In this document: one piece after another, positions 1,686-48,723 of the stretch
Layout: every line of letters starts with the position of its first letter
How positions within the stretch are numbered: the first letter of the stretch is position 1
Made by a program: the position numbers and the translations under genes
Assembly (NCBI GenBank): GCA_005110385.1
Contig: DUDT01000012.1
Location: forward strand, 84,600-148,599
Source: Candidatus Melainabacteria bacterium
GTDB lineage: Bacteria; Cyanobacteriota; Vampirovibrionia; LMEP-6097
Direction: 5' to 3'
Length of the DNA stretch: 64,000 bases
The notes under the pieces: generated by a model
Told to the model about the DNA's origin: nothing
What the model saw: the letters and a program-made list of their open reading frames with translations, nothing else
The model's database searches: none

Positions 1686-2789
1686 TTGTCTAATTTTAAG
1701 TTAATTCTTGAATATAATGGTGCAGGCTTTTCTGGCTCGCAGATTCAGAATGTACGTAAGGATCATGAGGACGACGAAAACGCAGAAATTGAAGATAGCG
1801 GGCAATCACAGAGGGGGACTGCTCGCTATCGTACAAGTTCAAGGCTGAGGAGGACGAATGACCGCAGTGTACGGGTAATTTCTAGCGATGCCGAGGATGC
1901 GAGCCATGTAAGTGGCTCATATCCGAGCAAGCAGAAATACAAGCTTGATTTATCAAGCTTACATGAGGATCATGAGGACGACGAAAACGCAGAAATTGAA
2001 GATAGCGAGCCGTCCCAGAGGACTGTTCAGGGCGAATTAGAAAAAGCTTTAAGTGCCTATTTTCGCTCAAATATCTCTACTAATTTTTCTAGTCGCACAG
2101 ACGCTGGCGTTCATGCTATCGGGCAAGTAGTAAATTTTCACTTAAGTCAGGACGACGGGAGTGGAATATCTGAGCAATCTTATAATTCCTTCTCGGAGCT
2201 GGTTTTATCGAACCCTGATAAATTTTTAATCGGTTTAAATGGTATTTTACCTCATGATATGGCGGTAGCGAAAATTGAACCAGTGGCAGATGATTTCGAC
2301 GCAAGGTTCTCAGCTATAGCTAGAGAGTATATGTATAAAATATTTATTCGCAAACATAGACCAGTACTGCGTTTAGATAGCTTACTGTGGGTAAAAGAAT
2401 CTTTAGATTTTAATGCGATGCAGGTTCATGCGCAGAAATTCCTCGGGGAGCATGATTTTAGTGCTTATTATAGAGCTGAAACTTATGCGAAGAACCCTCT
2501 CTGTAATGTTATGAAATCTGAAATGGTTCAGGAGAGTGGCATCTGCTTTAAATATTATATTCGTTCGAATCGTTTTTTAAAAAATATGGTGAGGCGTATA
2601 GTCGGGGAGCTTATTCAGGTGGGGAAATTAGCGGCTAAGGGTGAGGATGTGAGTAAATTAGAGCCGAATTTTATTTATACTGATGAAAATAAAAAAGAAA
2701 GTGGAGCTCTATTTGTTTCTCAGTATGGGCGTGTGAATGCTAAGGCTGAAGCCCCAGAGGGGCTGACTTTAATGAAGGTTTTTTATTAA
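1686..2789 (+). CDS. truA: tRNA pseudouridine(38-40) synthase TruA carrying a ~90-aa in-frame repeat-element insertion
   Basis: N-terminal FKLILEYNGAGFSGSQIQ ... TVQGELEKAL and catalytic RTDAGVHA; the normally contiguous N-terminal motif is split by bases ~1750-2025. Confidence 0.85.
   Translation: MSNFKLILEYNGAGFSGSQIQNVRKDHEDDENAEIEDSGQSQRGTARYRTSSRLRRTNDRSVRVISSDAEDASHVSGSYPSKQKYKLDLSSLHEDHEDDENAEIEDSEPSQRTVQGELEKALSAYFRSNISTNFSSRTDAGVHAIGQVVNFHLSQDDGSGISEQSYNSFSELVLSNPDKFLIGLNGILPHDMAVAKIEPVADDFDARFSAIAREYMYKIFIRKHRPVLRLDSLLWVKESLDFNAMQVHAQKFLGEHDFSAYYRAETYAKNPLCNVMKSEMVQESGICFKYYIRSNRFLKNMVRRIVGELIQVGKLAAKGEDVSKLEPNFIYTDENKKESGALFVSQYGRVNAKAEAPEGLTLMKVFY
1750..2025 (+). repeat. composite (about 1.5 copies plus an 88-bp internal segment) ENAE-type miniature inverted-repeat element, in frame within truA
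   Basis: GAGGATCATGAGGACGACGAAAACGCAGAAATTGAAGATAGCG occurs twice (about 1758-1800 and 1965-2007). The segment at 1828-1872 is the reverse complement of part of the intergenic copies at 13072-13155 and 37836-37958. Confidence 0.8.
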
Positions 2790-4784: not shown

Positions 4785-5583
4785 CAGATATAAGACTAGC
4801 TGCTTTTATCGGTCCTATGTATAAACTATCAGTACGAAGCTGTTCTATAAAAATTCGTCCTAGAGAATAAAGTATAAAATACAATCCTATACACTGTTTA
4901 CTCTCTAGTTTCTTGTGAGTATTTATTAGAATGCTGAAGCTGATTAGGTTCCAGATCATTTCATATAAAAAAGTGGGATGATGATATTTACCAGTGTGGC
5001 TGATATATAATGCCCAAGGCAAACTCGTTACCGAGCCGAAAGCCTCTTCGTTAAAGAAGTTCCCCCATCTGCCGATAGCTTGCCCGAGTGGGGCTGTAAT
5101 CGCCAAGGCACTTAGCTGCAAGCTGTAGTAGCTAGCTTGAGATACAGCTACATTCTCGGACTGCTCGCCATCTTCAATTTCCGCATTTTCGTTATCCTCT
5201 GGATTATTTTTTTTCGATCTCTGAAAAAAATAACTATAAATCCAAGTTCCTAATATCCCTCCAATAAGACCACCCTGTATGCTCTGCCCACCAAGCCAGA
5301 TCTGATAAGACTCTAGAGGATGCTCCCAAAAATAACTTATATTTAATAGGACAAACCAGGCTCTAGCACCGATAATCCCAGTAACGACCGCGACTAAAGC
5401 AAAATTAGAAAAATCATCGAAAGAGACACTAAGGTTCTTCTTTAATGCTCTTTCCTTCAGGACACTAGCACCAGCATAAATGGCAGTCAGGCAGCCAAGA
5501 GCCGTCATTAGACCATACCAGCGAATCTGTGTAACACCGAAGTCAAATAATATAGGTCCAGGAGATGAGAAAAGAAGAGGCAT
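4729..5583 (-). CDS. lgt: prolipoprotein diacylglyceryl transferase with a short in-frame repeat-element insertion
   Basis: Multi-pass membrane protein with IRWYGLM, GRWGNFFNEEAFG and HPTFLYE motifs typical of Lgt. Confidence 0.85.
   Translation of the reverse strand: MPLLFSSPGPILFDFGVTQIRWYGLMTALGCLTAIYAGASVLKERALKKNLSVSFDDFSNFALVAVVTGIIGARAWFVLLNISYFWEHPLESYQIWLGGQSIQGGLIGGILGTWIYSYFFQRSKKNNPEDNENAEIEDGEQSENVAVSQASYYSLQLSALAITAPLGQAIGRWGNFFNEEAFGSVTSLPWALYISHTGKYHHPTFLYEMIWNLISFSILINTHKKLESKQCIGLYFILYSLGRIFIEQLRTDSLYIGPIKAASLISAIGIALGLALLWQKRKVY
5158..5200 (-). repeat. partial ENAE-type element (terminal repeat plus core), in frame within lgt
   Basis: GGACTGCTCGCCATCTTCAATTTCCGCATTTTCGTTATCCTC aligns with the left end of the 37836 copy (GTACTGCTCGCAAACTCCAATTCCTGCGTTTTCGTCGTCTTC); it encodes EDNENAEIEDGEQSE. 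Confidence 0.7.
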
Positions 5584-11730: not shown

Positions 11731-13071
11731 ATGTTTAAAAAAATGAGATTTTCAATACCCTTTTCTTTGGCTTTGATTCTCTTTCTTGGGCTCTCAGTCA
11801 GTGCTGATTTTGATAAAAAATGGATTAAAGTTAGCCAAAAAGATTCTAAACACACTGAAGTCGCAACTGAAATGTTGATGAGAAAATGCAAGGATTGCCA
11901 TACTTCTCACACTGAGTACCCTTTTTACTATAATCTTCCGTTTATAAAAGATTTAATAGATCAAGATATAAAGAAAGGTTTAGCTTACTTTAATATGGAA
12001 ATCGAAGTTTTTAATAAAGAGTTCGATTCGGAAATCAGTTCTACTTCCCTAAATAAGATAAAAAGTGTCTTAGAGAATGGCTCTATGCCACCACTCCAGT
12101 ATAAACTTATGCACTGGGATTCTCACTTTAGTGATACTGAGAAGAAGATAGTTACGACTTGGATTAAGGATCTTAGTAATAGTGACTTTATTCCTATCCC
12201 AAGTAAAGAAGATATGGAATTAGACGAGAATTTAGTGCTTCTTGGAGAGAAACTTTTTAGTGATACTAGGTTGTCACGTGATAACACTATATCCTGTGCC
12301 TCTTGCCATGATTTAGCTAAGGGTGGCACTGATCAAATGCAGTTCTCAACAGGTGTTGCTGGTGGTCATGGACGTATTAATTCTCCTACTGTATTTAATT
12401 CTGTTTTCAATATTAAGCAATTTTGGGATGGACGAGCAGAGGATTTAATCGCACAAGCTAGCGGGCCAGTGCATAATCCACTGGAGATGGGTTCTAATTG
12501 GGATGAAGTTGTGGCTAAATTAAGTGCTGATGCTGATTACATAGTCCTGTTTGAGAGTGCCTTTGGCTCACAAGAGATTACTGGAGAGAAAGTAGCAGCT
12601 GCCATTGCTGAATTTGAAAAATCACTAGTTACCCCAGATAATAAGTTCGATTTATATCTGAAGGGTAATGATTACGCACTTTCTGATAAAGAGAAGCAAG
12701 GATTCGAATTATTTAAAAAATATAATTGTAATAATTGTCACCTAGGAGTCTCGGTAGGAGCGAATTCTTTTCAGAAAATGGGCGTCTATAAAGATTATTT
12801 TGCAGATAGGGCTGCAGGGCTTAATGGTTTAAAACAGATGCCCCTTGCGAAGGAAGATTTAGGTAGATTTAATGTAACTAGGGCTGAAGTTGATAGGCAT
12901 GTATTTAAAGTTCCGACTTTAAGAAATATTAAGAAAACTTTTCCTTATTTGCATGATGGGACTATTCGAAGTCTATCTAGAACTGTAGAAATTATGGGTG
13001 AATATCAAGTCGGGAAAACTATTCCGAAGGAAGATGTGACCAAGATAGTACTTTTCTTGAAAACCCTTTAA
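11731..13071 (+). CDS. cytochrome c peroxidase (CCP/MauG family) with an extra N-terminal haem-binding domain
   Basis: Signal peptide; CxxCH motifs CKDCH, CASCH and CNNCH; FWDGRAEDL and PTLRN motifs typical of di-haem CCP. Confidence 0.8.
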   Translation: MFKKMRFSIPFSLALILFLGLSVSADFDKKWIKVSQKDSKHTEVATEMLMRKCKDCHTSHTEYPFYYNLPFIKDLIDQDIKKGLAYFNMEIEVFNKEFDSEISSTSLNKIKSVLENGSMPPLQYKLMHWDSHFSDTEKKIVTTWIKDLSNSDFIPIPSKEDMELDENLVLLGEKLFSDTRLSRDNTISCASCHDLAKGGTDQMQFSTGVAGGHGRINSPTVFNSVFNIKQFWDGRAEDLIAQASGPVHNPLEMGSNWDEVVAKLSADADYIVLFESAFGSQEITGEKVAAAIAEFEKSLVTPDNKFDLYLKGNDYALSDKEKQGFELFKKYNCNNCHLGVSVGANSFQKMGVYKDYFADRAAGLNGLKQMPLAKEDLGRFNVTRAEVDRHVFKVPTLRNIKKTFPYLHDGTIRSLSRTVEIMGEYQVGKTIPKEDVTKIVLFLKTL

Positions 13072-13155
13072 GGCACTATTGCCGAACTCCAATTTCTGCG
13101 TTTTCGTCGTCTTCATGATCCTCAGCCTTGAACTTGTACGTTTGGCAGCAGTGCC
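13072..13155 (-). repeat. ENAE-type miniature inverted-repeat element, complete 84-bp intergenic copy
   Basis: Terminal inverted repeats GGCACTATTGCCGA (13072-) and TTGGCAGCAGTGCC (-13155); core CTCCAATTTCTGCGTTTTCGTCGTCTTCATGATCCTCAGCCTTGAACTTGTACG; starts directly after the ccp TAA. Confidence 0.8.
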
Positions 13156-14618: not shown

Positions 14619-14700
14619 GAGACTTCTCTTTTGTTTATAAAAAATTCGATTAATTAAAGAGACCCTGCACAACCATTAGATAAAGATGTTAGAATAATTT

Positions 14701-14725
14701 CATTTTCTGCGTTTTCCTTGTCCTC
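14701..14725 (+). repeat. fragment of an ENAE-type element abutting the stop codon of the GT4 gene
   Basis: CATTTTCTGCGTTTTCCTTGTCCTC matches the element core (TTTCTGCGTTTTCGTCGTC). Confidence 0.5.
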
Positions 14726-15868
14726 TTAAAACCGCTGCTTCTTAAAATTAAATATAAAACTAAAAATAAGCCAAATAGCAGCTATAGAGCCAATTATAAC
14801 TAGGTAACTTATACCTACTTCATAACCGACTTCAAAGCAGCCTAAGCCTCCACAAAAAAGACTCAAAGAGTAAATTAAGTAATTTATTTGCTTATGTGAA
14901 AGTCCTAAATTCTCTAGCTGGTGATGTAGGTGTTCTGAGTCTGGCTTTAAGATATCTTTTTTATTTAGAGATCGCCTTATTATAGTATAGAAGCAGTCTA
15001 GTAGCGGCAATGCGAAGATTAAAATAAGTAATGGCGTTATAATCGCAACTGTGATTTTTTTTGCAAGACCGAGACAGGAAAGGGAAGCAAGGACGAAGCC
15101 GAGAAGATATGAACCGTTATCGCCGAGAAACATTCTAGCGGGATGAAAGTTGTAACGTAGAAAGCCTAAGCTCGCTCCAGCTAAGGTGGCAGCAAGTAGG
15201 GCTGCGTCTGGTCTATAAAGGAGTGGACTTAAGCTAATAGCCCAAATCGCTACTGCTGAAATGACACTTACTCCAGCTGCTAATCCATCTATGCCATCTA
15301 TTAAATTTATGGCGTTACTGATAAGCACGAGGAAAGCCACTGTGATTAAAAAACTGGAAATGGCACCAAGCTTTATGTGTGGGCTCAGGCTGTGATCGAA
15401 ATAATAGAGAGGGTTTGCGAGGAATTTAATTTTCAAACCTAGTAGTGAAGTAATAGAAGCCGCTGAAACTTGTCCAAGAAGTTTCGTTAGGCAGGGTAGT
15501 GGTTTTATATCATCAAGTAAGCCGATTAAGAAAATCATGGTACTGCCAGTGATTATCGCTTCTAGCTCTAAATGCTTAATACCTGCAGGGGTAAATCTGC
15601 CATAGACTATTATAAAAATAACTACAGTAACTGCGGTTGAAATTAATATAGATAATCCACCTAATCTCGGCGTGGAGAGCGTTTTCATTTTATCTCCTAC
15701 GTTTGAGTAGTAGCGCCCAGATTCTAATTCTTTTCTTGTAGTAAAGCCAGCCCTTTCTTTGATGATAGGGGTAAGTATATAAGACAAAAATAAAGCGATG
15801 ATAAAAGCTAATGGTTGAGCTTGGCTCAGATCCACGAAGGTGCTGAATTCATTAAACGGTATATTCAA
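14726..15868 (-). CDS. glycosyltransferase family 4 (MraY/WecA-type polyprenyl-phosphate N-acetylhexosamine-1-phosphate transferase)
   Basis: Multi-pass membrane protein with NAINLIDGIDGLAAG and DDIKPL motifs. Confidence 0.8.
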   Translation of the reverse strand: MNIPFNEFSTFVDLSQAQPLAFIIALFLSYILTPIIKERAGFTTRKELESGRYYSNVGDKMKTLSTPRLGGLSILISTAVTVVIFIIVYGRFTPAGIKHLELEAIITGSTMIFLIGLLDDIKPLPCLTKLLGQVSAASITSLLGLKIKFLANPLYYFDHSLSPHIKLGAISSFLITVAFLVLISNAINLIDGIDGLAAGVSVISAVAIWAISLSPLLYRPDAALLAATLAGASLGFLRYNFHPARMFLGDNGSYLLGFVLASLSCLGLAKKITVAIITPLLILIFALPLLDCFYTIIRRSLNKKDILKPDSEHLHHQLENLGLSHKQINYLIYSLSLFCGGLGCFEVGYEVGISYLVIIGSIAAIWLIFSFIFNFKKQRF

Positions 15869-17354: not shown

Positions 17355-17378
17355 GGCACTGTTGCCGAACTCCAATTA
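17355..17378 (-). repeat. truncated ENAE-type element (left terminal repeat only)
   Basis: GGCACTGTTGCCGAACTCCAATT is near-identical to the first 23 nt of the 13072 copy, after which similarity ends. Confidence 0.55.
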
Positions 17379-17705: not shown

Positions 17706-18173
17706 TTGCAGAAGGAATATCTTGAATTGTCAAAAACTGAAAAAGACCTAGGTCTTAAAATATTAATGGATCTTAGGAGGATCACGCGTGCGATAGATCT
17801 TAATTCTAAAAAACTATCTTCTGAGACCAGTCTAACAGCACCGCAGGTAGTATCTTTAATTGCAGTTTATCATCACGGGGTACTCACTTTAGCAGAGATA
17901 GCAGAACAAGTGCATTTAAGCTCTAGTACGATGGTTGGCATTATAGACAGGCTTGAAGCTAAAAATTTAGTAATAAGGGAAAGATCTAAAACTGATAGAA
18001 GACAGGTGCTTATTCGTATCACAGATGAAGGTCAGAAAATGGCGAAGAAATCACCATTACCTTTACAGGAAGAGCTTATTAAATCACTCAGCAAGCTACC
18101 AGAAGCACAGCAGAGAAATTTAGCTAAAGCTTTAGAGTTATTAGTGAAAATGCTTGATTTTAAAGATAGTTAA
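17706..18173 (+). CDS. MarR family transcriptional regulator
   Basis: Winged-helix region LTLAEIAEQVHLSSSTMVGIIDRLEAKNLVIRERSKTDRRQVLIRITDEG. Confidence 0.8.
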   Translation: MQKEYLELSKTEKDLGLKILMDLRRITRAIDLNSKKLSSETSLTAPQVVSLIAVYHHGVLTLAEIAEQVHLSSSTMVGIIDRLEAKNLVIRERSKTDRRQVLIRITDEGQKMAKKSPLPLQEELIKSLSKLPEAQQRNLAKALELLVKMLDFKDS

Positions 18174-18688
18174 GCGAGATCTTTTGATGATAATTCTAGC
18201 TTAACTAAATGCTTAACACCATCATTAACTACCCCATCCCCTATGATAATTTCCCCATCCAGCTCAATCGTCCTTCTCTCGCTTGAAACTATATTCTGTG
18301 TATCTGTCTCCAGTACATGCTTTAATGACGTCTGTTTATTGTGAACAGTAATTTCATAACTACTAGATTCATGCTGGTAGTAAATAGTAAAACCATCCCA
18401 GTAGTCTGGAATACAGGGATTAAGTTTTAAAATATTATTTTCGACTGTAAGACCAAGAATCCATTCGATACCAGCTTTATACATCCAAGCCGCTGAGCCA
18501 GTGTACCAGCTCCAGTCACCGCGGCCAGTATGTGGTGCTTCTGAATATACATCTCCAGCCATTACATAAGGCTCAAGTTTATATTTATGGGCGCCTAATC
18601 GCGTATTGCTGTGATTGATTGGATTTAACATGCTGAAACATTCATGAGCTTTTTTCGCATTACGGCACTGTTGCTTAATTAAAATCAC
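18170..18688 (-). pseudogene. C-terminal remnant of a GH94/GT36-type glycoside phosphorylase or cyclic glucan synthase-like gene
   Basis: GRGDWSWYTGSAAWMYKAGIEWILGL motif normally sits near the C-terminus of 800+ aa GH94 enzymes; only ~170 codons remain, and they abut an IS. Confidence 0.55.
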
Positions 18689-18808
18689 AGAAAGGAGTTA
18701 ATGGGAAATGAGGAAAAAGGCTTCAAGTATTGAGTTTGCAGCTCATTAGATTTAATGTTTTATTGATAAGTCAGTAAAAGAGAGGGTTTCAGGCGCAAAT
18801 ATTCCAAA

Positions 18809-19372
18809 TTAGGATACACGTATCCCTAAGAAGCTGAGATGGTCATATATATTTACAAGGGTTTTAAGATTTTGGGATATAGCGTCAAGTGTTTGGTGGA
18901 AAGTAACTTTAGTTAGTCCTCTAAAATATCTGACAGATTGATCTGCATAATGAAAAAGTCCTTCGAAAGGCGATCTTCTTTTAGTTAGCCATAAATCAAG
19001 GTTTTTATTTTTATCTTTGCGATTATTTTTTTTAATAACACCAGAATGAAGCTCTTTATCTGAAAGTGCTTGAAGGAAGTCAGCGGTATCGTAGCCTTTA
19101 TCTGCAAATATCATTCCAAGCGGCGAAAGTACTTTTACCCCAAGCTGTGCATCAGTAAGATTGGCTGGGGAAACATCTATTCCAGTAATCATCCCGTGTT
19201 TCATATCTACAGCCTGAGTTCTTTTGTAGCCGTACCAAAATTTAGAACCGTCTTTACAGCCAATCTTTGCATAAGGGTCTGCAGAATATTTTTCAATATT
19301 TGAATTATTAAGAGTTTTCTGTTTATCTTCTATAGCTTTATCTCGAGCTTCCCAGATATTAGATTTACTCAC
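18809..19372 (-). CDS. IS5-family DDE transposase, C-terminal part (frame stays open upstream to ~19432 without a start)
   Basis: FIDATAV just upstream in the same frame (first catalytic Asp context), DKGYDTADF (second Asp) and a C-terminal E-containing region. Confidence 0.7.
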   Translation of the reverse strand: MSKSNIWEARDKAIEDKQKTLNNSNIEKYSADPYAKIGCKDGSKFWYGYKRTQAVDMKHGMITGIDVSPANLTDAQLGVKVLSPLGMIFADKGYDTADFLQALSDKELHSGVIKKNNRKDKNKNLDLWLTKRRSPFEGLFHYADQSVRYFRGLTKVTFHQTLDAISQNLKTLVNIYDHLSFLGIRVS

Positions 19373-19385
19373 TACTGCTGTAGCA

Positions 19386-19721
19386 TCAATGAAGGTAAAT
19401 GTATCTGAAATTATATTTTGTTTTCTTATGTTCTGTTAGGCGAAATCCACAAAAATATTTTGCACAAACATTTTCTTTAAGAAATCTTTCCATCTCTCTG
19501 TCTGAATGATTTTCAGCTTGCTGCAAAACTAACATTTTCAAAGCAGATTCTACGGGATATGCTTTTTTCCCTGAATTGCTTGAATAAATCGATTTAATTC
19601 CCTTTGCTAATGACTCAAAATCTACTAGTTTTAATAGTTTCCTATATGCATGATCTTTTGGAACTAAATTCTCTAAAAGCTCCGAATGAAAATCTAATTG
19701 AAAAGACTCGTTACTAAACAT
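19386..19721 (-). CDS. IS5-family transposase, N-terminal (InsH/DUF772-like) part
   Basis: LVPKDHAYRKLLKLVDF and YFCGFRL motifs typical of the transposase N-terminal domain; ends one frame away from the DDE part. Confidence 0.65.
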   Translation of the reverse strand: MFSNESFQLDFHSELLENLVPKDHAYRKLLKLVDFESLAKGIKSIYSSNSGKKAYPVESALKMLVLQQAENHSDREMERFLKENVCAKYFCGFRLTEHKKTKYNFRYIYLH

Positions 19722-19896
19722 ACCTTTATCTATTTTAATATCAAAACATACTCCTGCAAAGACTCTTAATGTAAATGCCTATCGGTATTTACTCGTTGGG
19801 ATTGGCAACAGTCTCCTAATAAAATTTTGTGTGAAATCCCTGCGTGGTACTCAATTTAGAATTTGGGCTGTTGCTTAACTTATTTTTAACTTTTGC

Positions 19897-22341
19897 TTGA
19901 TATATTCTCTTGAGAGTTGTCCAAGGGGTATCCTAATGTCTAAATCTCTTTCTAATGTAAATATTAATAAACCATTTACGCAAGATAATGCTAGAACTGG
20001 TAAGGGCGAGAATACTGCTGATCAGGCTTCAAGAAAAGATACTTCGAAACGTGCTTCTGCAGTGAGAGACTCGATCATTAATAACAATAATAGTAAAAAC
20101 TCGACTATTTATGCAGGCAGAGGCGATGATGTAATTAATAACAACAATAGTGAAAACTCGACTATTTACGCAGGCAGAGGCGATGATGTAATTAATAACA
20201 ACAATAGTGAAAACGAGACTATTTATGCAGGCAGAGGCGATGATGTAATTAATAATAACAATAGTGAAAACTCGACTATTTATGCAGGCAGAGGCGATGA
20301 TGTAATTAATACGGATACTTTAGGAAGTAATACTATTAAGGCTGGTCGAGGCGATGATGTTGTCAATGTATCAGTAGAGATGGGGTCAAGAACTAATCCT
20401 AATGGAACTTTGACTATAAACGGTGGTGCTGGTCATGATAAAGTCATTCTCTCGGGGAAAAGGGAAGATTATGAGATTGATAAAAAAGGTAATTATGTCC
20501 ATATCGATACAGGTTCTCGAATTAAGATTAATGATGATGTAGAAGAAGTCAAGTTCCAAGAAGCAAGTACAAACAATTCAGCGAGTACTACTAGTCGAAC
20601 CAATCAGGGTAAGATAAAGGCTTTGCAGCAAGGTCTGGATAAATATTTTGATGTTTTAAATACGTCGGCGGGCGAAGCCACTTTAATACAAGATCCAGAT
20701 GCTCTGACTGCGGCAAGACAGAATGCTGAGTTTACTAAACAATATAAATCAGATTTTACTAATGTTTGGGATAAAAACAAAGATGGTAGTTTAGATACTA
20801 CCGAGGTCACTCAATTTGGGTGGAAAGCTGAGGATTGGAATAAACATGTACTTAAGCATGATAAGAGTGGTGATGGGAAATTAAATTTTGATGAACTTCT
20901 AGGTGTTTGGAGGGAGTTTGATACGGATAAGAGTGGTAAATTGGAAGGCACTGCTACCACTGGCGAGATGGGAGTTTACGTGCGCGGTGATTATAAGAAA
21001 ATCTCTTCACAAGATCCAGATGCTCTGACTGCGGCAAGACAGAATGCTGAGTTTACTAAACAATATAAATCAGATTTTACTAAAGTTTGGGATAAAAACA
21101 AAGATGGTAGTTTAAATACTACCGAGGTCACTTCATTTGGGTGGAAAGCTGAGGATTGGAATAAACATGTACTTGAGCACGATAAGAGTGGTGATGGGAA
21201 ATTAAATTTTGATGAACTTCTAGGTGTTTGGAGAGAGTTTGATACTGATAAGAGTGGTAAATTGGAAGGTGTATTTGGAAAGGATGCCACTACTACCACT
21301 GGCGAGATGGGAGTTTACTGGCGCGGTGATTATGATAGTACAATGTCGCTCACATCAAGGCTTGATAAAATGGGCAATGAACTTAAAAAAATTGGTCCCA
21401 TAAAAATGAATTACGATGATTTCGTTGGTGCAAATGAAGGCGCATTTTCTCCAGTCACATATGCCGCTCGAACCGATTCTCTACAGCAACTGAGTTCAGA
21501 TGTCTTAGTAGACCTTGAAAATCAAATGTCAGCAGCTTTAGCAATAGATACAGACGCTGGAAGGCAGTCTGTGGCAAATTTAAGGACTGAAATGAAAACA
21601 ACTGCACAGCAGTTTAAACTTGATAATGGGGCATCAGAGCTTATGAATGGTTTGATTAACAAAGTTCAGATAGATTTCGGTAATATTGATAAAGAGCAAG
21701 CTAAAAGTCTTTATCAGATTAATCTAGAGAACCTTGTTGAAGCAGAGGTTAAATATAGTCAGGGTATTGCTACTGGCAATTTCGAAGAAAGAAGAGGAGT
21801 ATTACCTCAAATTACAGCGCTCGGAGAAATGCGAACTACTCAGCATGTAATTAGTGAATTAGAAAGGCAATATGGTTTTAAACGTCAAGATCTACTGCCG
21901 GAAAGGGCACTACAGGCAGAATTTATTGTTGAGTTGAATAATGATGCACTAGCTGATTTAAAGAATCAAATGTCTGAATCTTTAACAATAGATTCAGAGG
22001 CTGGGAGAATATCTTCAGCCGCTCTTAGGATTGAAATTAATCTAGTTAAAAAGGACAAGGATTTTTGGAGTAATAGAGCTGATTACTGGAGTGGTGATGA
22101 TACGTCTGCACCTAAGGTTAATGTAACTGACACAATGCCAGTAAGAGCAGCTCAGGCAGAATTTTTTGTTGAGTTGAATAATGATATACTCTACGATCTA
22201 AACACTCAGATGTCAGCAGCTTTAGCAATAGATACAGAAGCTGGAAGATTATCTGCTGCTTCTTTAAGAACTGAGATTGCTACGACCAAATCTCTATTAG
22301 GTTTTTGGCAGTCTGCAGCTACTTACTGGTCTGGATCTTGA
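19897..22341 (+). CDS. large repetitive putative calcium-binding protein (RTX-like GxGxDxU repeats plus EF-hand-like DxDxDG loops); start may be ATG at 19936
   Basis: 5 x 19-aa INNNNSENSTIYAGRGDDV, 2 x 107-aa units each with DKNKDGSL, DKSGDGKL and DTDKSGKL loops, and 3 C-terminal AEFxVELNND...IDxEAGR repeats. Confidence 0.7.
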   Translation: MIYSLESCPRGILMSKSLSNVNINKPFTQDNARTGKGENTADQASRKDTSKRASAVRDSIINNNNSKNSTIYAGRGDDVINNNNSENSTIYAGRGDDVINNNNSENETIYAGRGDDVINNNNSENSTIYAGRGDDVINTDTLGSNTIKAGRGDDVVNVSVEMGSRTNPNGTLTINGGAGHDKVILSGKREDYEIDKKGNYVHIDTGSRIKINDDVEEVKFQEASTNNSASTTSRTNQGKIKALQQGLDKYFDVLNTSAGEATLIQDPDALTAARQNAEFTKQYKSDFTNVWDKNKDGSLDTTEVTQFGWKAEDWNKHVLKHDKSGDGKLNFDELLGVWREFDTDKSGKLEGTATTGEMGVYVRGDYKKISSQDPDALTAARQNAEFTKQYKSDFTKVWDKNKDGSLNTTEVTSFGWKAEDWNKHVLEHDKSGDGKLNFDELLGVWREFDTDKSGKLEGVFGKDATTTTGEMGVYWRGDYDSTMSLTSRLDKMGNELKKIGPIKMNYDDFVGANEGAFSPVTYAARTDSLQQLSSDVLVDLENQMSAALAIDTDAGRQSVANLRTEMKTTAQQFKLDNGASELMNGLINKVQIDFGNIDKEQAKSLYQINLENLVEAEVKYSQGIATGNFEERRGVLPQITALGEMRTTQHVISELERQYGFKRQDLLPERALQAEFIVELNNDALADLKNQMSESLTIDSEAGRISSAALRIEINLVKKDKDFWSNRADYWSGDDTSAPKVNVTDTMPVRAAQAEFFVELNNDILYDLNTQMSAALAIDTEAGRLSAASLRTEIATTKSLLGFWQSAATYWSGS
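20077..20361 (+). repeat. 57-bp tandem repeat x5 (fifth unit degenerate) inside the CDS
   Basis: Unit starts at 20077, 20134, 20191, 20248 and 20305; near-identical ATTAATAACAACAATAGTGAAAACTCGACTATTTAYGCAGGCAGAGGCGATGATGTA. Confidence 0.9.
20689..21330 (+). repeat. 321-bp tandem duplication inside the CDS
   Basis: CAAGATCCAGATGCTCTGACTGCGGCAAGACAGAATGCTGAG... starts at 20689 and again at 21010, with only scattered substitutions. Confidence 0.9.
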
Positions 22342-23695: not shown

Positions 23696-24112
23696 TTAAT
23701 TGATCAAATACCGAATATGTCTATAAAATTGACTACTTAAAATGCTGCCTAGCACTGCTCTCTCGACTTCTAGCTCTTTAATGATCTTAATAAAAACATC
23801 TTTTAATTGTATAAGATCGGAGTTAATTATATTCCAAACCAGCTCAGCATCTATGCCTCTGTAATTATGTGAAAAGATATTGCGCATACCGACTATATTA
23901 GTCCAAGATATTTCAGGATGGCGGTCTTTTAGATTGTCGTCTAAGTTTTTAACTTCTTCCCCTATGGCTATTAGTAAATTAGCTGTAGCATTAAAATCTT
24001 TCTGATCATTAGCCCAAAGAAAATCACTATATGATTTATATTCACTAGAATAGATAAGTATTTTTTCTATAGCTTCTAGTATAGTAAGGCTAGATATAAG
24101 ATTTTTATTCAA
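23696..24112 (-). CDS. hepT: HepT-like (DUF86) toxin of a nucleotidyltransferase-type TA pair
   Basis: RNIFSHNY fits the Rx4HxY HEPN motif; 138 aa; overlaps the upstream MNT gene by 8 nt. Confidence 0.8.
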   Translation of the reverse strand: MNKNLISSLTILEAIEKILIYSSEYKSYSDFLWANDQKDFNATANLLIAIGEEVKNLDDNLKDRHPEISWTNIVGMRNIFSHNYRGIDAELVWNIINSDLIQLKDVFIKIIKELEVERAVLGSILSSQFYRHIRYLIN

Positions 24113-24416
24113 TTATAATCTTCTCCATCTCAATCCCCATCAGGATAATAGGATTTAAAAACTCTGGGTGATAATAGACTAGGTCTATAGGTCGCTTATC
24201 TAATAGCTCAGATAATTCATCTTTAGCATTTATATAATTACTAAGAGTTTTAAATTCAGACGAAAGCTTCACTGCTATATCTATATCGCTGTTTTCATTT
24301 TCAGAATTCTTAGCGAAAGAACCGAATAGCATAATCTCACTAAAGCCATATTTTTCTTTTAGGTAAGGCTTTTTAGTACTTAGTGTTTTTAAGATTTTCT
24401 CTTTAGAGAGAGTCAT
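24105..24416 (-). CDS. mntA: MntA-like minimal nucleotidyltransferase antitoxin
   Basis: LFGSFAKNSENENSDIDIAV fits the GSx(n)DxD nucleotidyltransferase motif; 103 aa. Confidence 0.8.
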   Translation of the reverse strand: MTLSKEKILKTLSTKKPYLKEKYGFSEIMLFGSFAKNSENENSDIDIAVKLSSEFKTLSNYINAKDELSELLDKRPIDLVYYHPEFLNPIILMGIEMEKIIIE

Positions 24417-24474: not shown

Positions 24475-25316
24475 GGCTCTTTACTTGCCGGGTGCTTTTC
24501 CGCACTCGACTTTTACAGATAAGATTAATGTTTCAATCATCAAGGCAACAATTAAAAACAAAAAAGCTAAACCGCAAGGGTCTAGCTTTTTCGTTTGCAT
24601 AAATGGTGCGCCTGGATAGATTTGAACCATCGAAGCAACCAGTGCGAGTTAAAGTCTCTAGTCCGCCACCAATCGGGATTCTTTAGATGTAAAAGCTTCG
24701 CTTTTACGGCGGGGTGCTTTTCCGCACTCGACTTTTACGGACAAGATGAATGTTTCAATCATCAAGGCAACGATTAAAAACAAAAAAGCTAAACCGCAAG
24801 GGTCTAGCTTTTTTGTTTGCATAAATGGTGCGCCTGGATAGATTTGAACCATCGAAGCAACCAGTGCGAGTTAAAGTCTCTAGTCCGCCACCAATCGGGA
24901 TTCTTTAGATGTAAAAGCTTCGCTTTTACTTGCCGAGTGCTTTTCCGCACTCGACTTTTACGGACAAGATGAATGTTTCAATCATCAAGGCAACGATTAA
25001 AAACAAAAAAGCTAAACCGCAAGGGTCTAGCTTTTTTGTTTGCATAAATGGTGCGCCTGGATAGATTTGAACCATCGAAGCAACCAGTGCGAGTTAAAGT
25101 CTCTAGTCCGCCACCAATCGGGATTCTTTAGATGTAAAAGCTTCGCTTTTACTTGCCGAGTGCTTTTCCGCACTCGACTTTTACGGACAAGATGAATGTT
25201 TCAATCATCAAGGCAACGATTAAAAACAAAAAAGCTAAACCGCAAGGGTCTAGCTTTTTTGTTTGCATAAATGGTGCGCCTGGATAGATTTGAACCATCG
25301 ACCAATCGGTTAAAAG
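24475..25316. repeat. 222/223-bp tandem array (about 3.8 units); each unit begins with the 3'-terminal 30 nt of tRNA-Lys (45 nt in the last copy)
   Basis: TGGTGCGCCTGGATAGATTTGAACCATCGA at 24604, 24826, 25049 and 25272; units are near-identical and each contains three hairpins. Confidence 0.9.
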
Positions 25317-25415
25317 GTAAGTCCCCCAAAGCCATTATAGGCTTATAACCTAGCTTTCAAGCTTTCAGATAACCTAAATTTCTTGCGTCTTGCGCCTTGA
25401 ATAAAGGAGTAAGAA

Positions 25416-26531
25416 ATGAACTATTTAAGCACCCTTGAGGTCTCTAAAGATTTAGGAATTCCTAAGCGAACTGTGCAAAGCTACTGTAAAGAAGGTTTTT
25501 TACCTGCATTAGTTAGTTTAAATAAAGGGAAGCCTTGCTATAAAATTGAAGCTCATAGCTATCTGAACTGGAAAAATAAAAATTTCAAAGGTATCAAAAG
25601 AGGTAAATTTAGTAAGCATACTTCTAGCGACAGAGAGATAGTTATAGATGATCTGAAAAGCCTAGCTCAAATCTGGTTAGAGTGGTGTGCTTCAGGTAAG
25701 CTTACAGGTAAACCACTAGGTAAACGAACTATAGAGATTTATGAATATTACTTCACTCTTTATATAAAGGGTTTAGGGAAGTATCCTTCTAAGCCTTTAA
25801 TTTCAGTAGATAATCTTCGTAATGTGCTTGGCTCTTATCAGCCACAGAACTACAGCACTAAGAGAAATATCTACGATGCGATTATGAGTTTTACTAAATA
25901 TTTAATTGAGTTAGATAAATTCAGCCCAGAGATTCGTAATAAGTTAAAAGCACTAAAACCTAAGAGATATTTACCAGCTAAAAAAACTTCACTTAATGAA
26001 ACTCAATTAAAGACTATGATAGCCGCCTGTAATGAAATGAAAACTAATTACTATGGAAGGTTAAGTAATAAAGTGATAGTAGTTTTCCTTGCTAATACTG
26101 GTCTTAGAGCCTTTGAGTTTTGTAAGCTCAAGCTAGAGGATATAAACCTAGAAGCTAAAAGAGTATATGTAAGACTAGGGAAAGGTAATAAACCACGTGA
26201 AATAGGTATTAATACTGAGACCTATGAATTACTACTAGAATATCTTAAAGCTAGGCTTTCTTTTGATTCTGAATATTTTTTCTTAAATAAAGATGGAAAA
26301 CCCTTTACAGTAGATAGACTGAATAAGAAAATATCAGGATTAGCTAATAAATTAGGCTTTAAAGGGATAAGCCCGCATAGCCTTAGAAGGTCCTTCGTAA
26401 CTATAAATGCTGCGAAAGGCAGACCATTAAACCATCTTAGGATAGCTTGCGGTCATGCTGATTTAAGCACTACTCAAGGCTACTGTATGACTAGCGTTGA
26501 TGAGGTCGTAGCTGCTATGAGGGAGTGGTAG
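25416..26531 (+). CDS. int: tyrosine recombinase / phage-type integrase
   Basis: TGLRAFEFCKLKLEDI (Arg I), HSLRRSF (HxxR), GHADLSTTQGY (His-Tyr); N-terminal HTH-like MerR/excisionase-type segment. Confidence 0.85.
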   Translation: MNYLSTLEVSKDLGIPKRTVQSYCKEGFLPALVSLNKGKPCYKIEAHSYLNWKNKNFKGIKRGKFSKHTSSDREIVIDDLKSLAQIWLEWCASGKLTGKPLGKRTIEIYEYYFTLYIKGLGKYPSKPLISVDNLRNVLGSYQPQNYSTKRNIYDAIMSFTKYLIELDKFSPEIRNKLKALKPKRYLPAKKTSLNETQLKTMIAACNEMKTNYYGRLSNKVIVVFLANTGLRAFEFCKLKLEDINLEAKRVYVRLGKGNKPREIGINTETYELLLEYLKARLSFDSEYFFLNKDGKPFTVDRLNKKISGLANKLGFKGISPHSLRRSFVTINAAKGRPLNHLRIACGHADLSTTQGYCMTSVDEVVAAMREW

Positions 26532-32428: not shown

Positions 32429-33375
32429 TTACCATTCCTTTTGACTCTCTAAGACCTCTTCGAGGCATGGGTTCACATAACTTTGTGTGGTTAATATACT
32501 TTGATGCCCTGCGATCATTTGCAGGTAAGGCATAGGTGCGCCCTTGCTTGCATAATGGGTAAGGCAGCCCCTTCGGAGGCTATGCCATGAACCAGAAAGC
32601 CCAGCTTTTTGAGTAAGTACCTTAAGCCTTTTCTCTAAGCGGTCCCGCTTTAATGGTCTGCCATCTGGTAATAAAAATAATTTATCTTCATTCATCGTTT
32701 CTACCTCTCATTTCAATATAGTTTTTTAAATCCTCTTTTAAAGCCTTATTAATGGCTACCCAGCGATTTTTACCGCCCTTACCGTTAAATATAAGAATTT
32801 TCCCTTCATCAAGAAAAACATCACCGAGATTTAAATTACAAATTTCCGAGACCCGAAGCCCAGTATAAAAAGCGAATTTTAAAAGAATCTCATTTAAATT
32901 CTTTGATGCTTGATTAGTTTTAAGTCTCTGATTGGCTTCTAATAGTAGATTTAATTCTTTCTCTCTAAAAGTAGGTCTGCGTATATCTTTATGGCGTTTG
33001 ATTTTTATACTTCTTAATCGCTCAAGAATATTATCGCTATCTCTAAGCATTGAATACCCCCTGTCTTATTAAAAACTTTGCTAAGCTAATAGCCGCTTCT
33101 TTACAGTGTTTACGGCTAGAAAATTGTTCGGGTTTATGAGCTTCTATAGCTTGAACTGTAGCCTCGTATAGATTAGAATAATCTGCTTCTAATAAATGCC
33201 AGATTTTATTCATCGCATTTAAATAGATGCGTATGCAGTCAAAGCTAATAGCTCTGCCGTATGGTTGTGAGCCATTTTGCATGGCAGCCACCCAGCTATA
33301 TACGATTTCTTGGTACTGCTCTGGTACTTTCTTCAAAAGATTTCCATAAGCGTGGCTAGTTAATGACTTGGTCAT
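32429..33375 (-). pseudogene. tyrosine recombinase split into three ORFs by two frameshifts
   Basis: 33375-33043 N-terminal SAM-like domain; 33050-32688 YTGLRVSEICNL (Arg I); 32695-32429 HSLRRGC and GHQSILTTQSY. Both junctions are 8-nt overlaps (ATGCTTAG, ATGAATGA). Confidence 0.75.
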
Positions 33376-33753: not shown

Positions 33754-33828
33754 TGGTGCGCCTGGATAGATTTGAACCATCGACCAATCGGTTAAAAGCC
33801 GAGTGCTCTACCGCTGAGCTACAGGCGC
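33754..33828 (-). tRNA. tRNA-Lys (anticodon UUU)
   Basis: Reverse complement GCGCCTG-TA-GCTC-AGCGGTA-GAGC-A-CTCGG-CTTTTAA-CCGAT-TGGTC-GATGG-TTCAAAT-CTATC-CAGGCGC-A-CCA folds as a cloverleaf. Confidence 0.92.
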
Positions 33829-34057: not shown

Positions 34058-35986
34058 ATGAATAAGATGAGAAATAGAGATGGCTGGGGAGGAAGGATTC
34101 GAACCCTCGAATGGCGGGACCAAAACCCACTGCCTTACCACTTGGCGACTCCCCAAAAATTTGAACATAATAATAATACTTTATTTTTTGGATTCCTGTC
34201 ACTTGGCTTCTTAATTTTTTTATGTTTCACTTTTAATAAAGCGGCAGCACAGCTGCCACCAAGCTTGTCTATTTTAGAGCTGAATAGGCGAAGAGTGGTT
34301 AATGCTAGTTTGAGTCCGCTAACGGCGGTTCTAGCTACAGATGAGCAATTGATTTATTCTCTGAACAGTAGGATTTTTGTAGATGAATCTTCACTGCCAA
34401 ATATTAATCTTCTAGATGAAAATGAGAGCTTTAAAGTAAATCGTATTTATCAAAATGCTACTGATATCTATTTCGCAACTAATGTGGGGCTGATTAGGAA
34501 TCAGCAGCGAATATTTACCAAAACTGGGGTTAATGATATTAGTTTTACTAAAGATAAAATTTATCTAAGTACGGATCTCGGGCTTTATGCTTCTGATATT
34601 TCGTCTCTACGCTGGGAGCTTGTAACTAAGGCAAATCTGCGGATTCTACAATGCAAACCTTCACTTAAATCTAAGAACCTTTTTTATTTACTCACGGTAA
34701 ATGGTTTTTATACTTTTAATTCTAAAAAGAATCTTGTGGTGAAAGTTAATCAGGGATTAGTGTTTAATTCTGATTCTGAATTAAAGGGGCGGCTCGAAAT
34801 TTTAAAACACAAGCAGCTTAAGGAAGAGCTGATTTATCTTGCTTTAAATAATGCTGTTTATAAGCTTGATGGTGCTAAAAAAAGCTGGCGTCGTTTAACT
34901 GACAAGGGTTTGGTTTTTGATCAAGATTCGCAGATGCAGGTGGTGGATATTTTCTATAAAGATGATTATTTATTTTTGGTTGCGAGTACTGGATTGTTTT
35001 ACGCTAAGTTAGGCTTAGGAAATGAAGTCACAGAGTGGCATAAGGTGAGTTCGGCGGAATTTAATTTAGATGAAAATTTTTTAGAAGGTTTTACTGCTTC
35101 TAGTTTTTCTAAGCAAGATAAAAGCATCTCTTTGTTTATAGGTAATTTTAGAGGCGATTTATATCAGCTCAGGCTTGGAGATTCAGGGCATGACCTAGAA
35201 ATTAGGGATGGACAGCAGTCCTCTGTGGCTCTCCTTGAGCCGATTGCATTGTCGTCAGCTCTAAATAAGGATCATGAGATTAAGAGTGAAGAAAAAACGA
35301 CTCAAGATATTATAAGTCCTAGTGAAAAGCCTGATGCGTTAGATTCGAAGGAGAAATTAAAGCTGATTTTTTCTTTAGAACCCACTATTCAAGAGACTCA
35401 AACTAAGGCTCTTCAGTTTTCGGGGATTCCTTCTGGGATGCAGTTTGGGGCTTATAAGCGGCAGGCTCGTTTAAGGAATGTTCTGCCACAGATCGATACA
35501 TCTTTCGATAATTCTGATTATGCTCTAAGTAGCTTAGAGACTCGTGGTTCAGACCAGTATGATTCGGCTGATAGTAGTATAAATAGTTCTTTAGATAAAA
35601 ATCGCAAAGCTTCTGCTGATAATGAGTTTAATACAGGCTTTCGCTTTACTTGGCATTTAGATCGTTTAATATATGATCCAGAGATTATAGACATAGTAAA
35701 TAGCGCAAGAGTTTCAGCGAATATTCGTGAAAACCTTCTTACTGAGCTAACTCAGATTTATTTCCAGAGGAAAAATCTTTTATCTGAGCTTATATCTAAT
35801 CCCTTCTCTAGGACTATGACTCAGAAGTTTAAATTGCAGGAACTTACTGCTGATATAGATGCTAGAACGGGTGGCTGGTACAGTCTTGCCTTGAGAAGTC
35901 GATTCAGGGAGGCTGCTGCGCGAAACACAGTGAGTGATTTGGAAAAAATATTAGAGGAGCTAGATATTAACTATGAAAATATTTAA
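34058..35986 (+). CDS. secreted repeat (beta-propeller-like) protein; true start uncertain because the first ~98 nt overlap tRNA-Gln
   Basis: Signal-peptide-like LFFGFLSLGFLIFLCFTFNKAAAQ begins just after the tRNA; recurring IYxxTxxGLY-type blades; 642-codon ORF. Confidence 0.55.
   Translation: MNKMRNRDGWGGRIRTLEWRDQNPLPYHLATPQKFEHNNNTLFFGFLSLGFLIFLCFTFNKAAAQLPPSLSILELNRRRVVNASLSPLTAVLATDEQLIYSLNSRIFVDESSLPNINLLDENESFKVNRIYQNATDIYFATNVGLIRNQQRIFTKTGVNDISFTKDKIYLSTDLGLYASDISSLRWELVTKANLRILQCKPSLKSKNLFYLLTVNGFYTFNSKKNLVVKVNQGLVFNSDSELKGRLEILKHKQLKEELIYLALNNAVYKLDGAKKSWRRLTDKGLVFDQDSQMQVVDIFYKDDYLFLVASTGLFYAKLGLGNEVTEWHKVSSAEFNLDENFLEGFTASSFSKQDKSISLFIGNFRGDLYQLRLGDSGHDLEIRDGQQSSVALLEPIALSSALNKDHEIKSEEKTTQDIISPSEKPDALDSKEKLKLIFSLEPTIQETQTKALQFSGIPSGMQFGAYKRQARLRNVLPQIDTSFDNSDYALSSLETRGSDQYDSADSSINSSLDKNRKASADNEFNTGFRFTWHLDRLIYDPEIIDIVNSARVSANIRENLLTELTQIYFQRKNLLSELISNPFSRTMTQKFKLQELTADIDARTGGWYSLALRSRFREAAARNTVSDLEKILEELDINYENI
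34081..34155 (-). tRNA. tRNA-Gln (anticodon UUG)
   Basis: Reverse complement TGGGGAG-TC-GCC-AAGTGGTAA-GGC-A-GTGGG-TTTTGGT-CCCGC-CATTC-GAGGG-TTCGAAT-CCTTC-CTCCCCA-G-CCA; has the U1-A72 pair typical of tRNA-Gln. Confidence 0.9.
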
Positions 35987-37227: not shown

Positions 37228-37836
37228 ATGAATAATTTGACCTTATTTGCGTTACTGTTTTCTATATGTGCTGCTTGTAATGCTGAAATGAAAATTTTTA
37301 TAAATGATAAAAAACCTGCGGTACTAGCACCGACTCAAGCTAGACCACCAGTTAAAAAAGTAGTTAAGGAGAAAAAGAAAATGAGCACTGAATTTAAAAT
37401 AGGGGATTTAGCTCCAGATTTCACTTTAAATGACCAAAACGGTAAAGCACAGACTCTATCTAGTTATAAGGGTAAGTTTGTACTTGTTTATTTCTATCCT
37501 AAGGATGATACTCCAGGATGTACTATAGAAGCTTGTTCTATTAGGGATAATGTTGCTCAGTTTTCGAAATATGATGTTAAAGTCTTTGGTATTAGTGCTG
37601 ACGACGTAGCTAGTCATAAAAAGTTTATTACTAAATATAAGTTACCTTTTGATTTACTTGCTGATACTAATAAAACAGTAGCTAAGCTCTATGGTGCTGA
37701 TGGACTTTTTATTAAAAGAATCTCTTTCTTGATTGATAAAGAAGGAAAGTTTGCGAAATTATACCCAAGTGTGAATCCTAGTCAGCATGCTGGGGAAATA
37801 CTTGCGGATTTAGCTTCGCTTACTCAGCGTATATAG
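37228..37836 (+). CDS. bcp: peroxiredoxin Bcp (thiol peroxidase) with an N-terminal signal/lipoprotein-like extension
   Basis: FVLVYFYPKDDTPGCTIEAC peroxidatic Cys motif; N-terminal LFALLFSICAAC; alternative start M52 at 37381. Confidence 0.85.
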   Translation: MNNLTLFALLFSICAACNAEMKIFINDKKPAVLAPTQARPPVKKVVKEKKKMSTEFKIGDLAPDFTLNDQNGKAQTLSSYKGKFVLVYFYPKDDTPGCTIEACSIRDNVAQFSKYDVKVFGISADDVASHKKFITKYKLPFDLLADTNKTVAKLYGADGLFIKRISFLIDKEGKFAKLYPSVNPSQHAGEILADLASLTQRI

Positions 37837-37958
37837 GTACTGCTCGCAAACTCCAATTCCTGCGTTTTCGTCGTCTTCATGATCCTCATGTACTTCGAGT
37901 ACACTGCGGTCATTCGTCCTCCTCAGCCTTGTACTTGCACGTTCATTAACAGTCCCGT
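37836..37958 (-). repeat. ENAE-type miniature inverted-repeat element, long (123-bp) intergenic variant
   Basis: GGTACTGCTCGCAAACTCCAATTCCTGCGTTTTCGTCGTCTTCATGATCCTC + 37-bp extra module + CTCAGCCTTGTACTTGCACG...AACAGTCCC; its first base is the last base of the bcp TAG. Confidence 0.8.
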
Positions 37959-47231: not shown

Positions 47232-47323
47232 TCAAGCTAGTGTATTCCCTGTATACAGTTAGCCTATGCTGGGTTTTATGGGGGAGAGGCTGAGGTATTT
47301 AAGTGAAAAGATGATCGAAAAAA

Positions 47324-48706: not shown

Positions 48707-48723
48707 AATTAATATTAAAATCC

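Follow-up and report, generated by a model that had tools for sequence, protein, structure and literature searches.

Does the 84-bp repeat at 13072-13155 of the 64,000-nucleotide stretch analysed here (the window) belong to a family of mobile elements and, if so, what could move it? A preliminary description, made from the sequence alone, had taken this copy as the reference form of a MITE/REP-like family with related sequence at eight or more sites, and had seen no cognate transposase in the window. That such a family exists, far above chance, is borne out. The 28-nt core GAGGACGACGAAAACGCAGAAATTGAAG matched four times in the window at up to three mismatches (0.00 expected), and a 14-nt core nine times at up to two mismatches (0.99 expected). 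Repeat finding joined the sites at 13072, 37836, 1750-2025, 5154-5204, 14696-14725, 17355-17377 and 44786-44826. A profile built from 41 copies of other genomes recovered every claimed site in the window except the two shortest, a 23-nt piece at 17355 and a 12-nt piece at 19802; the former is backed by a full copy at the orthologous site of another genome, whereas the latter is the end of an insertion sequence (IS) and drops out of the list.

In what follows, "sense" denotes the orientation in which the element is read in truA. The canonical copy measures 121 bp and comprises terminal inverted repeats of 13-16 bp, a conserved core and a central hairpin. Two 45-nt half-cores, left and right, flank a variable loop of 5 nt; outside them lie 13 variable terminal bases at one end and, at the other, 13 bases complementary to these, and a conserved AAC...GTT carries the pairing of the arms to 16 nt. 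The conserved core between the arms is asymmetric, with AACGAACAAGTTCAAGGCTGAGGAGGACGAATGACCGCAGTGTAC before the 5-nt loop and GTACATGAGGATCATGAGGACGACGAAAACGCAGAAATTGGAGTT after it. A loop of 5 nt was present in 49 of 67 two-halved copies, and at least 11 of the 13 terminal bases were complementary in 46 of 65 full copies. The arms fall into several types (GGGCGTGTAGCC, GGCACTGTTGCC, GGGACTGCTCGC, GAGACCGCTGCAC and others) and are far less conserved than the core, which suggests arm replacement or recent bursts. None of the copies carries a transposase gene; their open frame encodes a 40-aa low-complexity peptide.

Copies were scored at 84-256 bp, the ends of the 256-bp copy being uncertain. 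Shorter forms, of 84 bp (seen also at another locus, in L018) and of roughly 75-80 bp, arise via deletion between GAGGA-type direct repeats of the two half-cores. At the other extreme, the central hairpin of 17 copies holds an extra 73-140 nt, for a total of 189-202 bp (256 bp in the one copy so scored). In all 21 of its occurrences across the window and the sampled loci, a module of about 80 nt (range about 70-86 nt) is confined to the element. The module has small co-varying hairpins of its own and occupies one or the other of two TA positions in the GTAC of the central hairpin, flanked by TA on either side; whatever its length, the frame is kept (L008, L021, L044, L049, L056, L085, L087 and others). 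It could be a nested element or else a cassette that recombines. Long and canonical forms can occupy the same place: at one orthologous site L095 has 121 bp where L044 has about 200 bp, and truA contains the 202-bp form in the window and the 121-bp form in the genome CANHDW01. Copies decay through deletions between short internal direct repeats; what is left are right halves, seen for example as the ENAEIE stretches of truA, lgt and recO. A right-half remnant precedes many full copies, a pattern that would fit repeated use of a duplicated target. A solo left half in L053 was considered as the start of an autonomous element and discarded, being the C-terminal end of a host ORF.

Seen against this layout, the copies of the window change their roles. 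The one at 37836-37956 (minus strand; profile E = 1e-33), previously read as a 123-bp variant with an extra module, is the canonical 121-bp form, with one degenerate arm (7 of 13 bases complementary); the first G of the copy supplies the last base of the TAG stop of an AhpC/TSA gene (37228-37836), to which the copy lies antisense. The copy at 13072-13155 (minus strand; profile E = 5e-15) is instead a derivative without 37 nt of its interior, lost by deletion between short direct repeats. It has GGCACTG-type arms, and the terminal inverted repeats ascribed to it are present, pairing at 13 of 16 positions on direct reading. This copy begins on the base after the TAA stop of a cytochrome c peroxidase gene (11731-13071) and is likewise antisense to the gene. 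Both intergenic copies were present in all same-species contigs fetched, with no polymorphism. Three metagenome contigs of the same species (L127, L128 and L130) end inside the copy at 37836-37956, so the repeat breaks assemblies.

The core fragment noted at 14.7 kb is a decayed right half (14693-14728, minus strand; profile E = 5.5e-3) that lies directly against the stop of the glycosyltransferase gene at 14726-15868 (minus strand); at the orthologous site, the genome RFQS01 carries a remnant and, after it, a complete copy of 202 bp. The piece at 17355-17377 (minus strand) is a truncated right end, 23 nt long and 96% identical to the end of the copy at 13072. Its orthologue in RFQS01 (L056, 134-254) is a full 121-bp copy, and similarity between the genomes stops here. 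The sites in lgt and recO are decayed right halves, and their translations are in frame: 5157-5204 (minus strand; PEDNENAEIEDGEQSE; profile hit 5158-5204, E = 1.5e-4) and 44785-44826 (minus strand; ISENAETGAYEQSGE; profile hit 44785-44819, E = 1.7e-4), respectively. The recO protein of the window occurs unchanged in freshwater metagenome contigs. At truA (1750-2025), the element does lie inside the gene, as a composite: an in-frame right-half remnant (1751-1814, plus strand; VRKDHEDDENAEIEDSGQSQR in translation; profile hit 1748-1804, E = 4e-11) is followed by a long 202-bp copy, also in frame (1815-2016, plus strand; arms GGGACTGCTCGCT and AGCGAGCCGTCCC; profile hit in two parts). The long copy is flanked by the target duplication AGAGG (1810-1814 and 2017-2021) and carries the optional module, of about 81 nt, in its central hairpin (1875-1960, plus strand).

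Beyond the window, a scan of one genome per species with the 19-nt pattern GAAAACGCAGRAAYTGRAG returned at least 105 stretches, 73 of which, among the matches listed, come from five metagenome-assembled genomes (MAGs): JBMOEX01 (Vampirovibrionia), JBJTTW01, RFQS01 (labelled Proteobacteria), CANHDW01 (Caenarcaniphilales) and JAGWWP01 (Cyanobacteria REEB446). The remaining listed stretches are single chance matches in about 30 unrelated genomes, in which nhmmer detected no copy. Searching with the truA copy, nhmmer gave 139 hits that merged into 83 copies, all in the five MAGs and the window, from a sample of about 0.5 Mb of five species plus the window; these loci were picked for having the core motif, so densities and proportions are biased, and some copies are orthologous between species and hence not independent. 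The copies are thus present in at least five related Caenarcaniphilales/Vampirovibrionia MAG species. A Chlamydia-like host, initially suggested by low G+C, Sel1 repeats and export genes, was rejected on this placement of the repeats. The window is about 91-93% identical to the five MAGs over orthologous parts and therefore represents a sixth related species. We found no earlier description of the element for Melainabacteria or Caenarcaniphilales in the literature.

The element inserts with a 5-bp target-site duplication. Among the 46 copies with good arms, the 5-bp flanks are identical in 11 (0.46 expected, with a maximum of 3 in 500 random pairings), and four of the five flank bases are equal in 11 more (2.0 expected); duplications of 4 and 6 bp showed no excess in the same 46 copies, and no clear duplication was seen in copies with GAGACC-type arms. 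The copies also differ between species, rather than all being conserved at orthologous positions as an ancient fixed motif would be, and the empty site that the preliminary description had proposed to look for in relatives is found, with precise borders, in CANHDW01 (L027). This genome is without exactly 126 nt present in JBMOEX01 (L029, 7018-7138) and RFQS01 (L070, 1577-1697). The difference equals the 121-bp element plus the 5-bp duplication, that is, 42 codons, in frame within an ORF that reads ...YEIQSQSDEIK... in L027 and ...YEIQSH[LGRVAKRTSSRLRRTNDRSVLGVHEDHEDDENAEIGVSLHAH]PDELK... in L029 and L070. We considered and rejected a core that inserts into pre-existing palindromes, the arms being those of the target: the empty site has no arms, and the duplication lies outside them. 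An integron attC-like site was set aside on the conservation of the core and the target duplication that is made.

An ORF of at least 450 nt runs through the element in 29 of the 65 full copies (45%), without exception in sense orientation and with the reading frame beginning at the element's first base. Sense frame 0 is open in 38 of the 41 aligned copies; antisense frame 0, open in 31 of the 41, is used by none (binomial p = 4e-9), and the other four frames are closed. The sense peptide has a GRAVY of -1.25 and 40% charged residues, its first half being basic and its second acidic. The length classes 121, 190, 196, 199 and 202 all equal 1 mod 3, also outside genes, so that with the 5-bp duplication most variants add whole codons; the exceptions measure 189 and 192 bp, and none of them scored as intragenic in a long ORF. 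Insertion in the stop-free sense frame adds 42 hydrophilic residues (...RTSSRLRRTNDRSV..HEDHEDDENAEIGV...) and leaves the host protein unbroken, and selection would remove insertions in the other orientation and frames. The intragenic copies that persist are shown to be solely those in the stop-free sense frame.

TruA proteins present a range of such states. The uninserted sequence NVKQSQRTVQ is found in P0061, P0064 and P0070, one 42-aa insert in P0056, the remnant SxAEIEDCE alone in P0054, P0059, P0060 and P0069, and a remnant together with a full copy in P0051 and P0053; the window protein has a longer remnant and the 202-bp form with its AGAGG flanks. P0052, 98% identical to the window protein, is without the insert and keeps only PSQ. 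A second loop site of TruA holds remnants in P0069 and P0071.

A candidate for the autonomous partner lies in the window itself, contrary to the preliminary description. The preliminary description had read 19802-19813 as a possible solo terminal repeat; it is the left inverted repeat of a decayed IS5-family insertion sequence at 18664-19815 (minus strand; Pfam PF01609, E = 5.7e-12), which came to light in a Pfam scan of ORFs near the copies. The terminal repeats of the IS, GAGACTGTTGCCAATC (from 19815 downward) and GGCACTGTTGCTTAAT (from 18664 upward), are inverted and match at 13 of 16 positions, and its ends GGCACTGTTGC and GAGACTGTTGCC show the same motif as the element arm GGCACTGTTGCC. 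An 89-bp deletion splits the transposase into two minus-strand ORFs, the N-terminal part at 19386-19721 and a DDE_Tnp_1 fragment at 18809-19372. In a strain contig (L112), the same IS is intact at the same locus, with 1241 bp and a 333-aa transposase (P0143) that is 90% identical to that of the window and carries PF05598 (DUF772) and PF01609 (DDE_Tnp_1); it is through this homologue that the combination defining the IS5 family, DDE_Tnp_1 with DUF772 between short inverted repeats, is found. The same ends occur in other MAGs, and the similarity of the window to other MAGs stops exactly at 18664.

Related insertion sequences encode transposases that are 60-63% identical and have other ends, the intact ones measuring 1.18-1.24 kb with 332-333 aa. 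Those in L118-L120 end in GGGCGTGTAGCCAAATAG, 15 nt identical to arm type a (in L118, the end GGGCGTGTAGCCAAA equals type a at 15 of 15 nt), those in L114-L117 in GGGCGTGTCGCCAAATCC and that in L113 in GGGACTGTAGCAAAATAG; GGGACTGTAGC is the end of another related IS. Among genomes of this clade, the GGCACTG-type IS alone was found, the type-a and GGGACTG IS being known from metagenome contigs; a metagenome scan for the type-a IS end gave one uninformative contig. A 5-bp duplication flanks two copies of related IS (ACTAT/ACTAT and CTTAG/CTTAA). No duplication was seen at the window copy or in three of the five relatives' contigs that include both flanks, where short metagenome contigs across repeats may be chimeric. 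The named IS5 subgroups duplicate 2-4, 8 or 9 bp and are not known to duplicate 5 bp. The IS of the window and its intact relatives resemble the IS5 family in DUF772, DDE_Tnp_1 and short terminal repeats, whereas the window copy is broken, matches the NCBIfam IS1182/IS5 models below their cut-offs, and the 5-bp duplication is atypical. Transposases of this kind (DUF772 plus DDE_Tnp_1) would move the element in trans, its different arm types matching the ends of different related IS lineages.

At the right end of the IS, a GH94 glycoside hydrolase gene is truncated: ORF 18170-18688 retains only the last ~70 residues of the catalytic domain (profile positions 353-420 of 420). The cut gene, together with the missing target duplication, suggests that a deletion or rearrangement probably followed the insertion.

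Other features of the window include a large EF-hand/RTX calcium-binding ORF full of internal repeats (19897-22341): a 57-bp periodicity consisting of five overlapping 114-nt copies, 57 bp apart (20020-20361), a 261-bp unit present twice (20688-21269), and units of ~83-143 bp (21511-22278). A HepT-like ribonuclease and nucleotidyltransferase (MNT) pair, in the arrangement of a type VII toxin-antitoxin system (23696-24416), lies just before four tandem units of 222-223 bp, each with a copy of the tRNA-Lys 3' end and a terminator-like hairpin, beside a tyrosine integrase gene. About 8 kb from these units, an integrase pseudogene adjoins the intact tRNA-Lys, and genes with DUF3800, Sel1 repeats, RDD, DUF3987 and DUF3854 lie in between. 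The region (24480-25375, 25416-26531, 32429-33375 and 33754-33828) resembles an integrated island, or several, in which attachment sites have accumulated. ORF 34058-35986 (plus strand) is listed with a start that overlaps a tRNA-Gln (34081-34155, minus strand); its real start is probably further downstream. A strain-variable segment of 1.42 kb (47301-48720), with one ORF (47324-48706, 460 aa, no Pfam match), is missing from three contigs of the same population (L001, L003 and L004).

Strong co-variation of the stems would also be expected if the repeats were structured non-coding RNA genes or regulatory hairpins (3'-end stabilisers or terminators) that spread by duplication and are conserved for an RNA function. 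In 41 distinct 121-bp copies, both sides change in 15 of the 16 pairs of the terminal helix (94% paired) and in 2 of the 6 pairs of the central hairpin (100% paired; variants GTGTAC/GTACAT, GTGCAC/GTGCAT and GTGTAT/ATACAT); over all stems 93% of cells are paired, none of 500 shuffles reaches these values, and shifted pairings collapse. Position relative to genes points the same way, with 23 of the 65 full copies abutting the stop codon of a gene, a position that both intergenic window copies also have. An antisense ORF of at least 100 codons stops between -8 and +10 nt from the element edge in 17 copies, and such an ORF lies on the sense strand in 6. The stop is found in the flank, across the junction (TA/G, as at 37834-37836) or as a TAG inside the GGGCGTGTAGC arm, and such siting may result from a preference for AT-rich target 5-mers with TA in them, from tolerance, or from a function at 3' ends. 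Folding is divided: the plus strand of 13072-13155 reaches z = -4.0, but the 121-bp copy at 37836 does no better than shuffles (z about -1), and a T-run after the hairpin is not consistent. A known RNA family or ribozyme was rejected on the Rfam search, in which no family reached the gathering score on the element regions (below it, even with permissive E-values, just sX9, 19.8 bits versus 44) and two tRNAs were the only matches at that score in the window. An RNA function also sits badly with the 45% of copies that lie in ORFs and are read through as protein, and with the target duplication and precise empty site. On the sequences compared, the arms are better understood as co-varying in step with several related transposase lineages that they match than as being selected to form a hairpin; arms selected as hairpins were largely replaced, as an explanation, by arm types that match the ends of different IS lineages. 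This match does not explain the co-variation of the central hairpin, and some 3'-end copies may have a secondary role, but as an account of the family an RNA origin appears unlikely.

Arms that vary in sequence yet stay complementary, an element that folds back on itself and the GTAG of the type-a arm could equally recall a REP/REPIN-like or IS200/IS605-type palindrome, moved as single-stranded DNA by an HUH enzyme (RAYT or TnpA) that recognises hairpins. Such elements duplicate no target, whereas here 5 bp are duplicated; the arms are the same as the inverted repeats that bound IS with DDE transposases, no HUH-type (RAYT) gene was found among the 32 window ORFs scanned, and the sampled loci contained no multi-copy ORF. 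We therefore give this mechanism very little credence. Equally little credence attaches to the idea that the element is a protein-coding module, a selected peptide insertion or domain whose intergenic copies are decayed gene fragments. It would account for the single frame and orientation of every intragenic copy, for length variants that keep the frame even outside genes and for the conserved peptide, but it has to contend with the more than half of copies that lie outside ORFs, many of them antisense to the neighbouring gene, with the inverted ends, target duplication and empty site, with host proteins as unrelated as TruA, Lgt, RecO and others, and with the commonness of insert-free orthologues. 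A search of the protein database with the peptide gave just short spurious ORFs of 33-71 aa (P0001-P0050); these "hypothetical proteins", annotated in public MAGs over intergenic copies, are almost certainly not genes.

We therefore favour, with a probability of roughly 85%, a MITE family mobilised in trans by IS5-family transposases and resident in frame in genes as the explanation of the repeats. Every testable hallmark of a MITE is supported: inverted repeats, 5-bp duplication, dispersed copies, an empty site, deletion derivatives and a candidate partner IS with matching ends. The initial assignment to a non-autonomous transposable element therefore holds, whereas its REP-like label has to be given up, since a target duplication is made and the ends match an insertion sequence with a DDE transposase. 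Simple descent of each subfamily from its own IS does not explain a core conserved beyond the arms. It is conceivable, and we put it forward tentatively as somewhat less probable than its negation, that one MITE core repeatedly switched both arms to several IS5-family lineages and was shaped for life in genes; the shaping is suggested by lengths that are mostly whole-codon (189 and 192 bp excepted), the use of one stop-free frame and the frame-keeping nested module.

In habit, the element is closest to the Rickettsia palindromic elements (RPEs), short palindromic repeats that lie in frame in unrelated housekeeping genes and are kept as peptide, occur also between genes and are present in many copies per genome (PMC10969869). 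The Melainabacteria element is likewise found in frame in unrelated genes (29 of 65 copies; TruA, Lgt and RecO among the hosts). What sets it apart are evident terminal inverted repeats, a target duplication of 5 bp, a candidate parent IS and a host in another phylum; that host is a Caenarcaniphilales bacterium, so the likeness is that of a functional analogue. We know of no transposase partner for RPEs. In its 5-bp duplication and compensatory stems, the element is closest to bcr1 of the Bacillus cereus group, a mobile repeat of ~120-155 bp with 5-bp direct-repeat flanks and compensatory stem changes (PMC3184786), with which it also shares its size. Unlike it, bcr1 lies mostly between genes, in an unrelated host phylum, and is described as an element that is transcribed and works at the RNA level; neither an in-frame intragenic habit nor a matching IS is reported for it. 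MITEs with a parent IS, such as Nezha/ISNpu3 in cyanobacteria and Correia in Neisseria, likewise share their ends with the IS, duplicate their target, show both filled and empty orthologous sites and are numerous (PMC3184786, PMC10969869). Correia duplicates TA and has 26-bp inverted repeats, compared with 5 bp and 13-16 bp here, and Nezha has a different sequence and a different partner. In contrast to classical MITEs, a single conserved core is combined here with several types of arm, matching different IS5-family lineages, and roughly 45% of the sampled copies lie within genes in a single frame.

For these uncultured bacteria, the family explains many of the odd differences in length among housekeeping proteins and their acidic "ENAEIE" stretches, as well as the short "hypothetical proteins" annotated spuriously in MAGs and the breaking of contigs during assembly. 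Its copies are strain and species markers for freshwater Caenarcaniphilales. The family represents a second, independent case of Rickettsia-type in-frame residence in genes, with a visible target duplication and a candidate transposase, so that the origin and mobilisation of RPE-like elements could be tested directly here. If arm switching is true, this would be an RPE-like system of protein tinkering with an identifiable transposase, and an experimentally tractable one.
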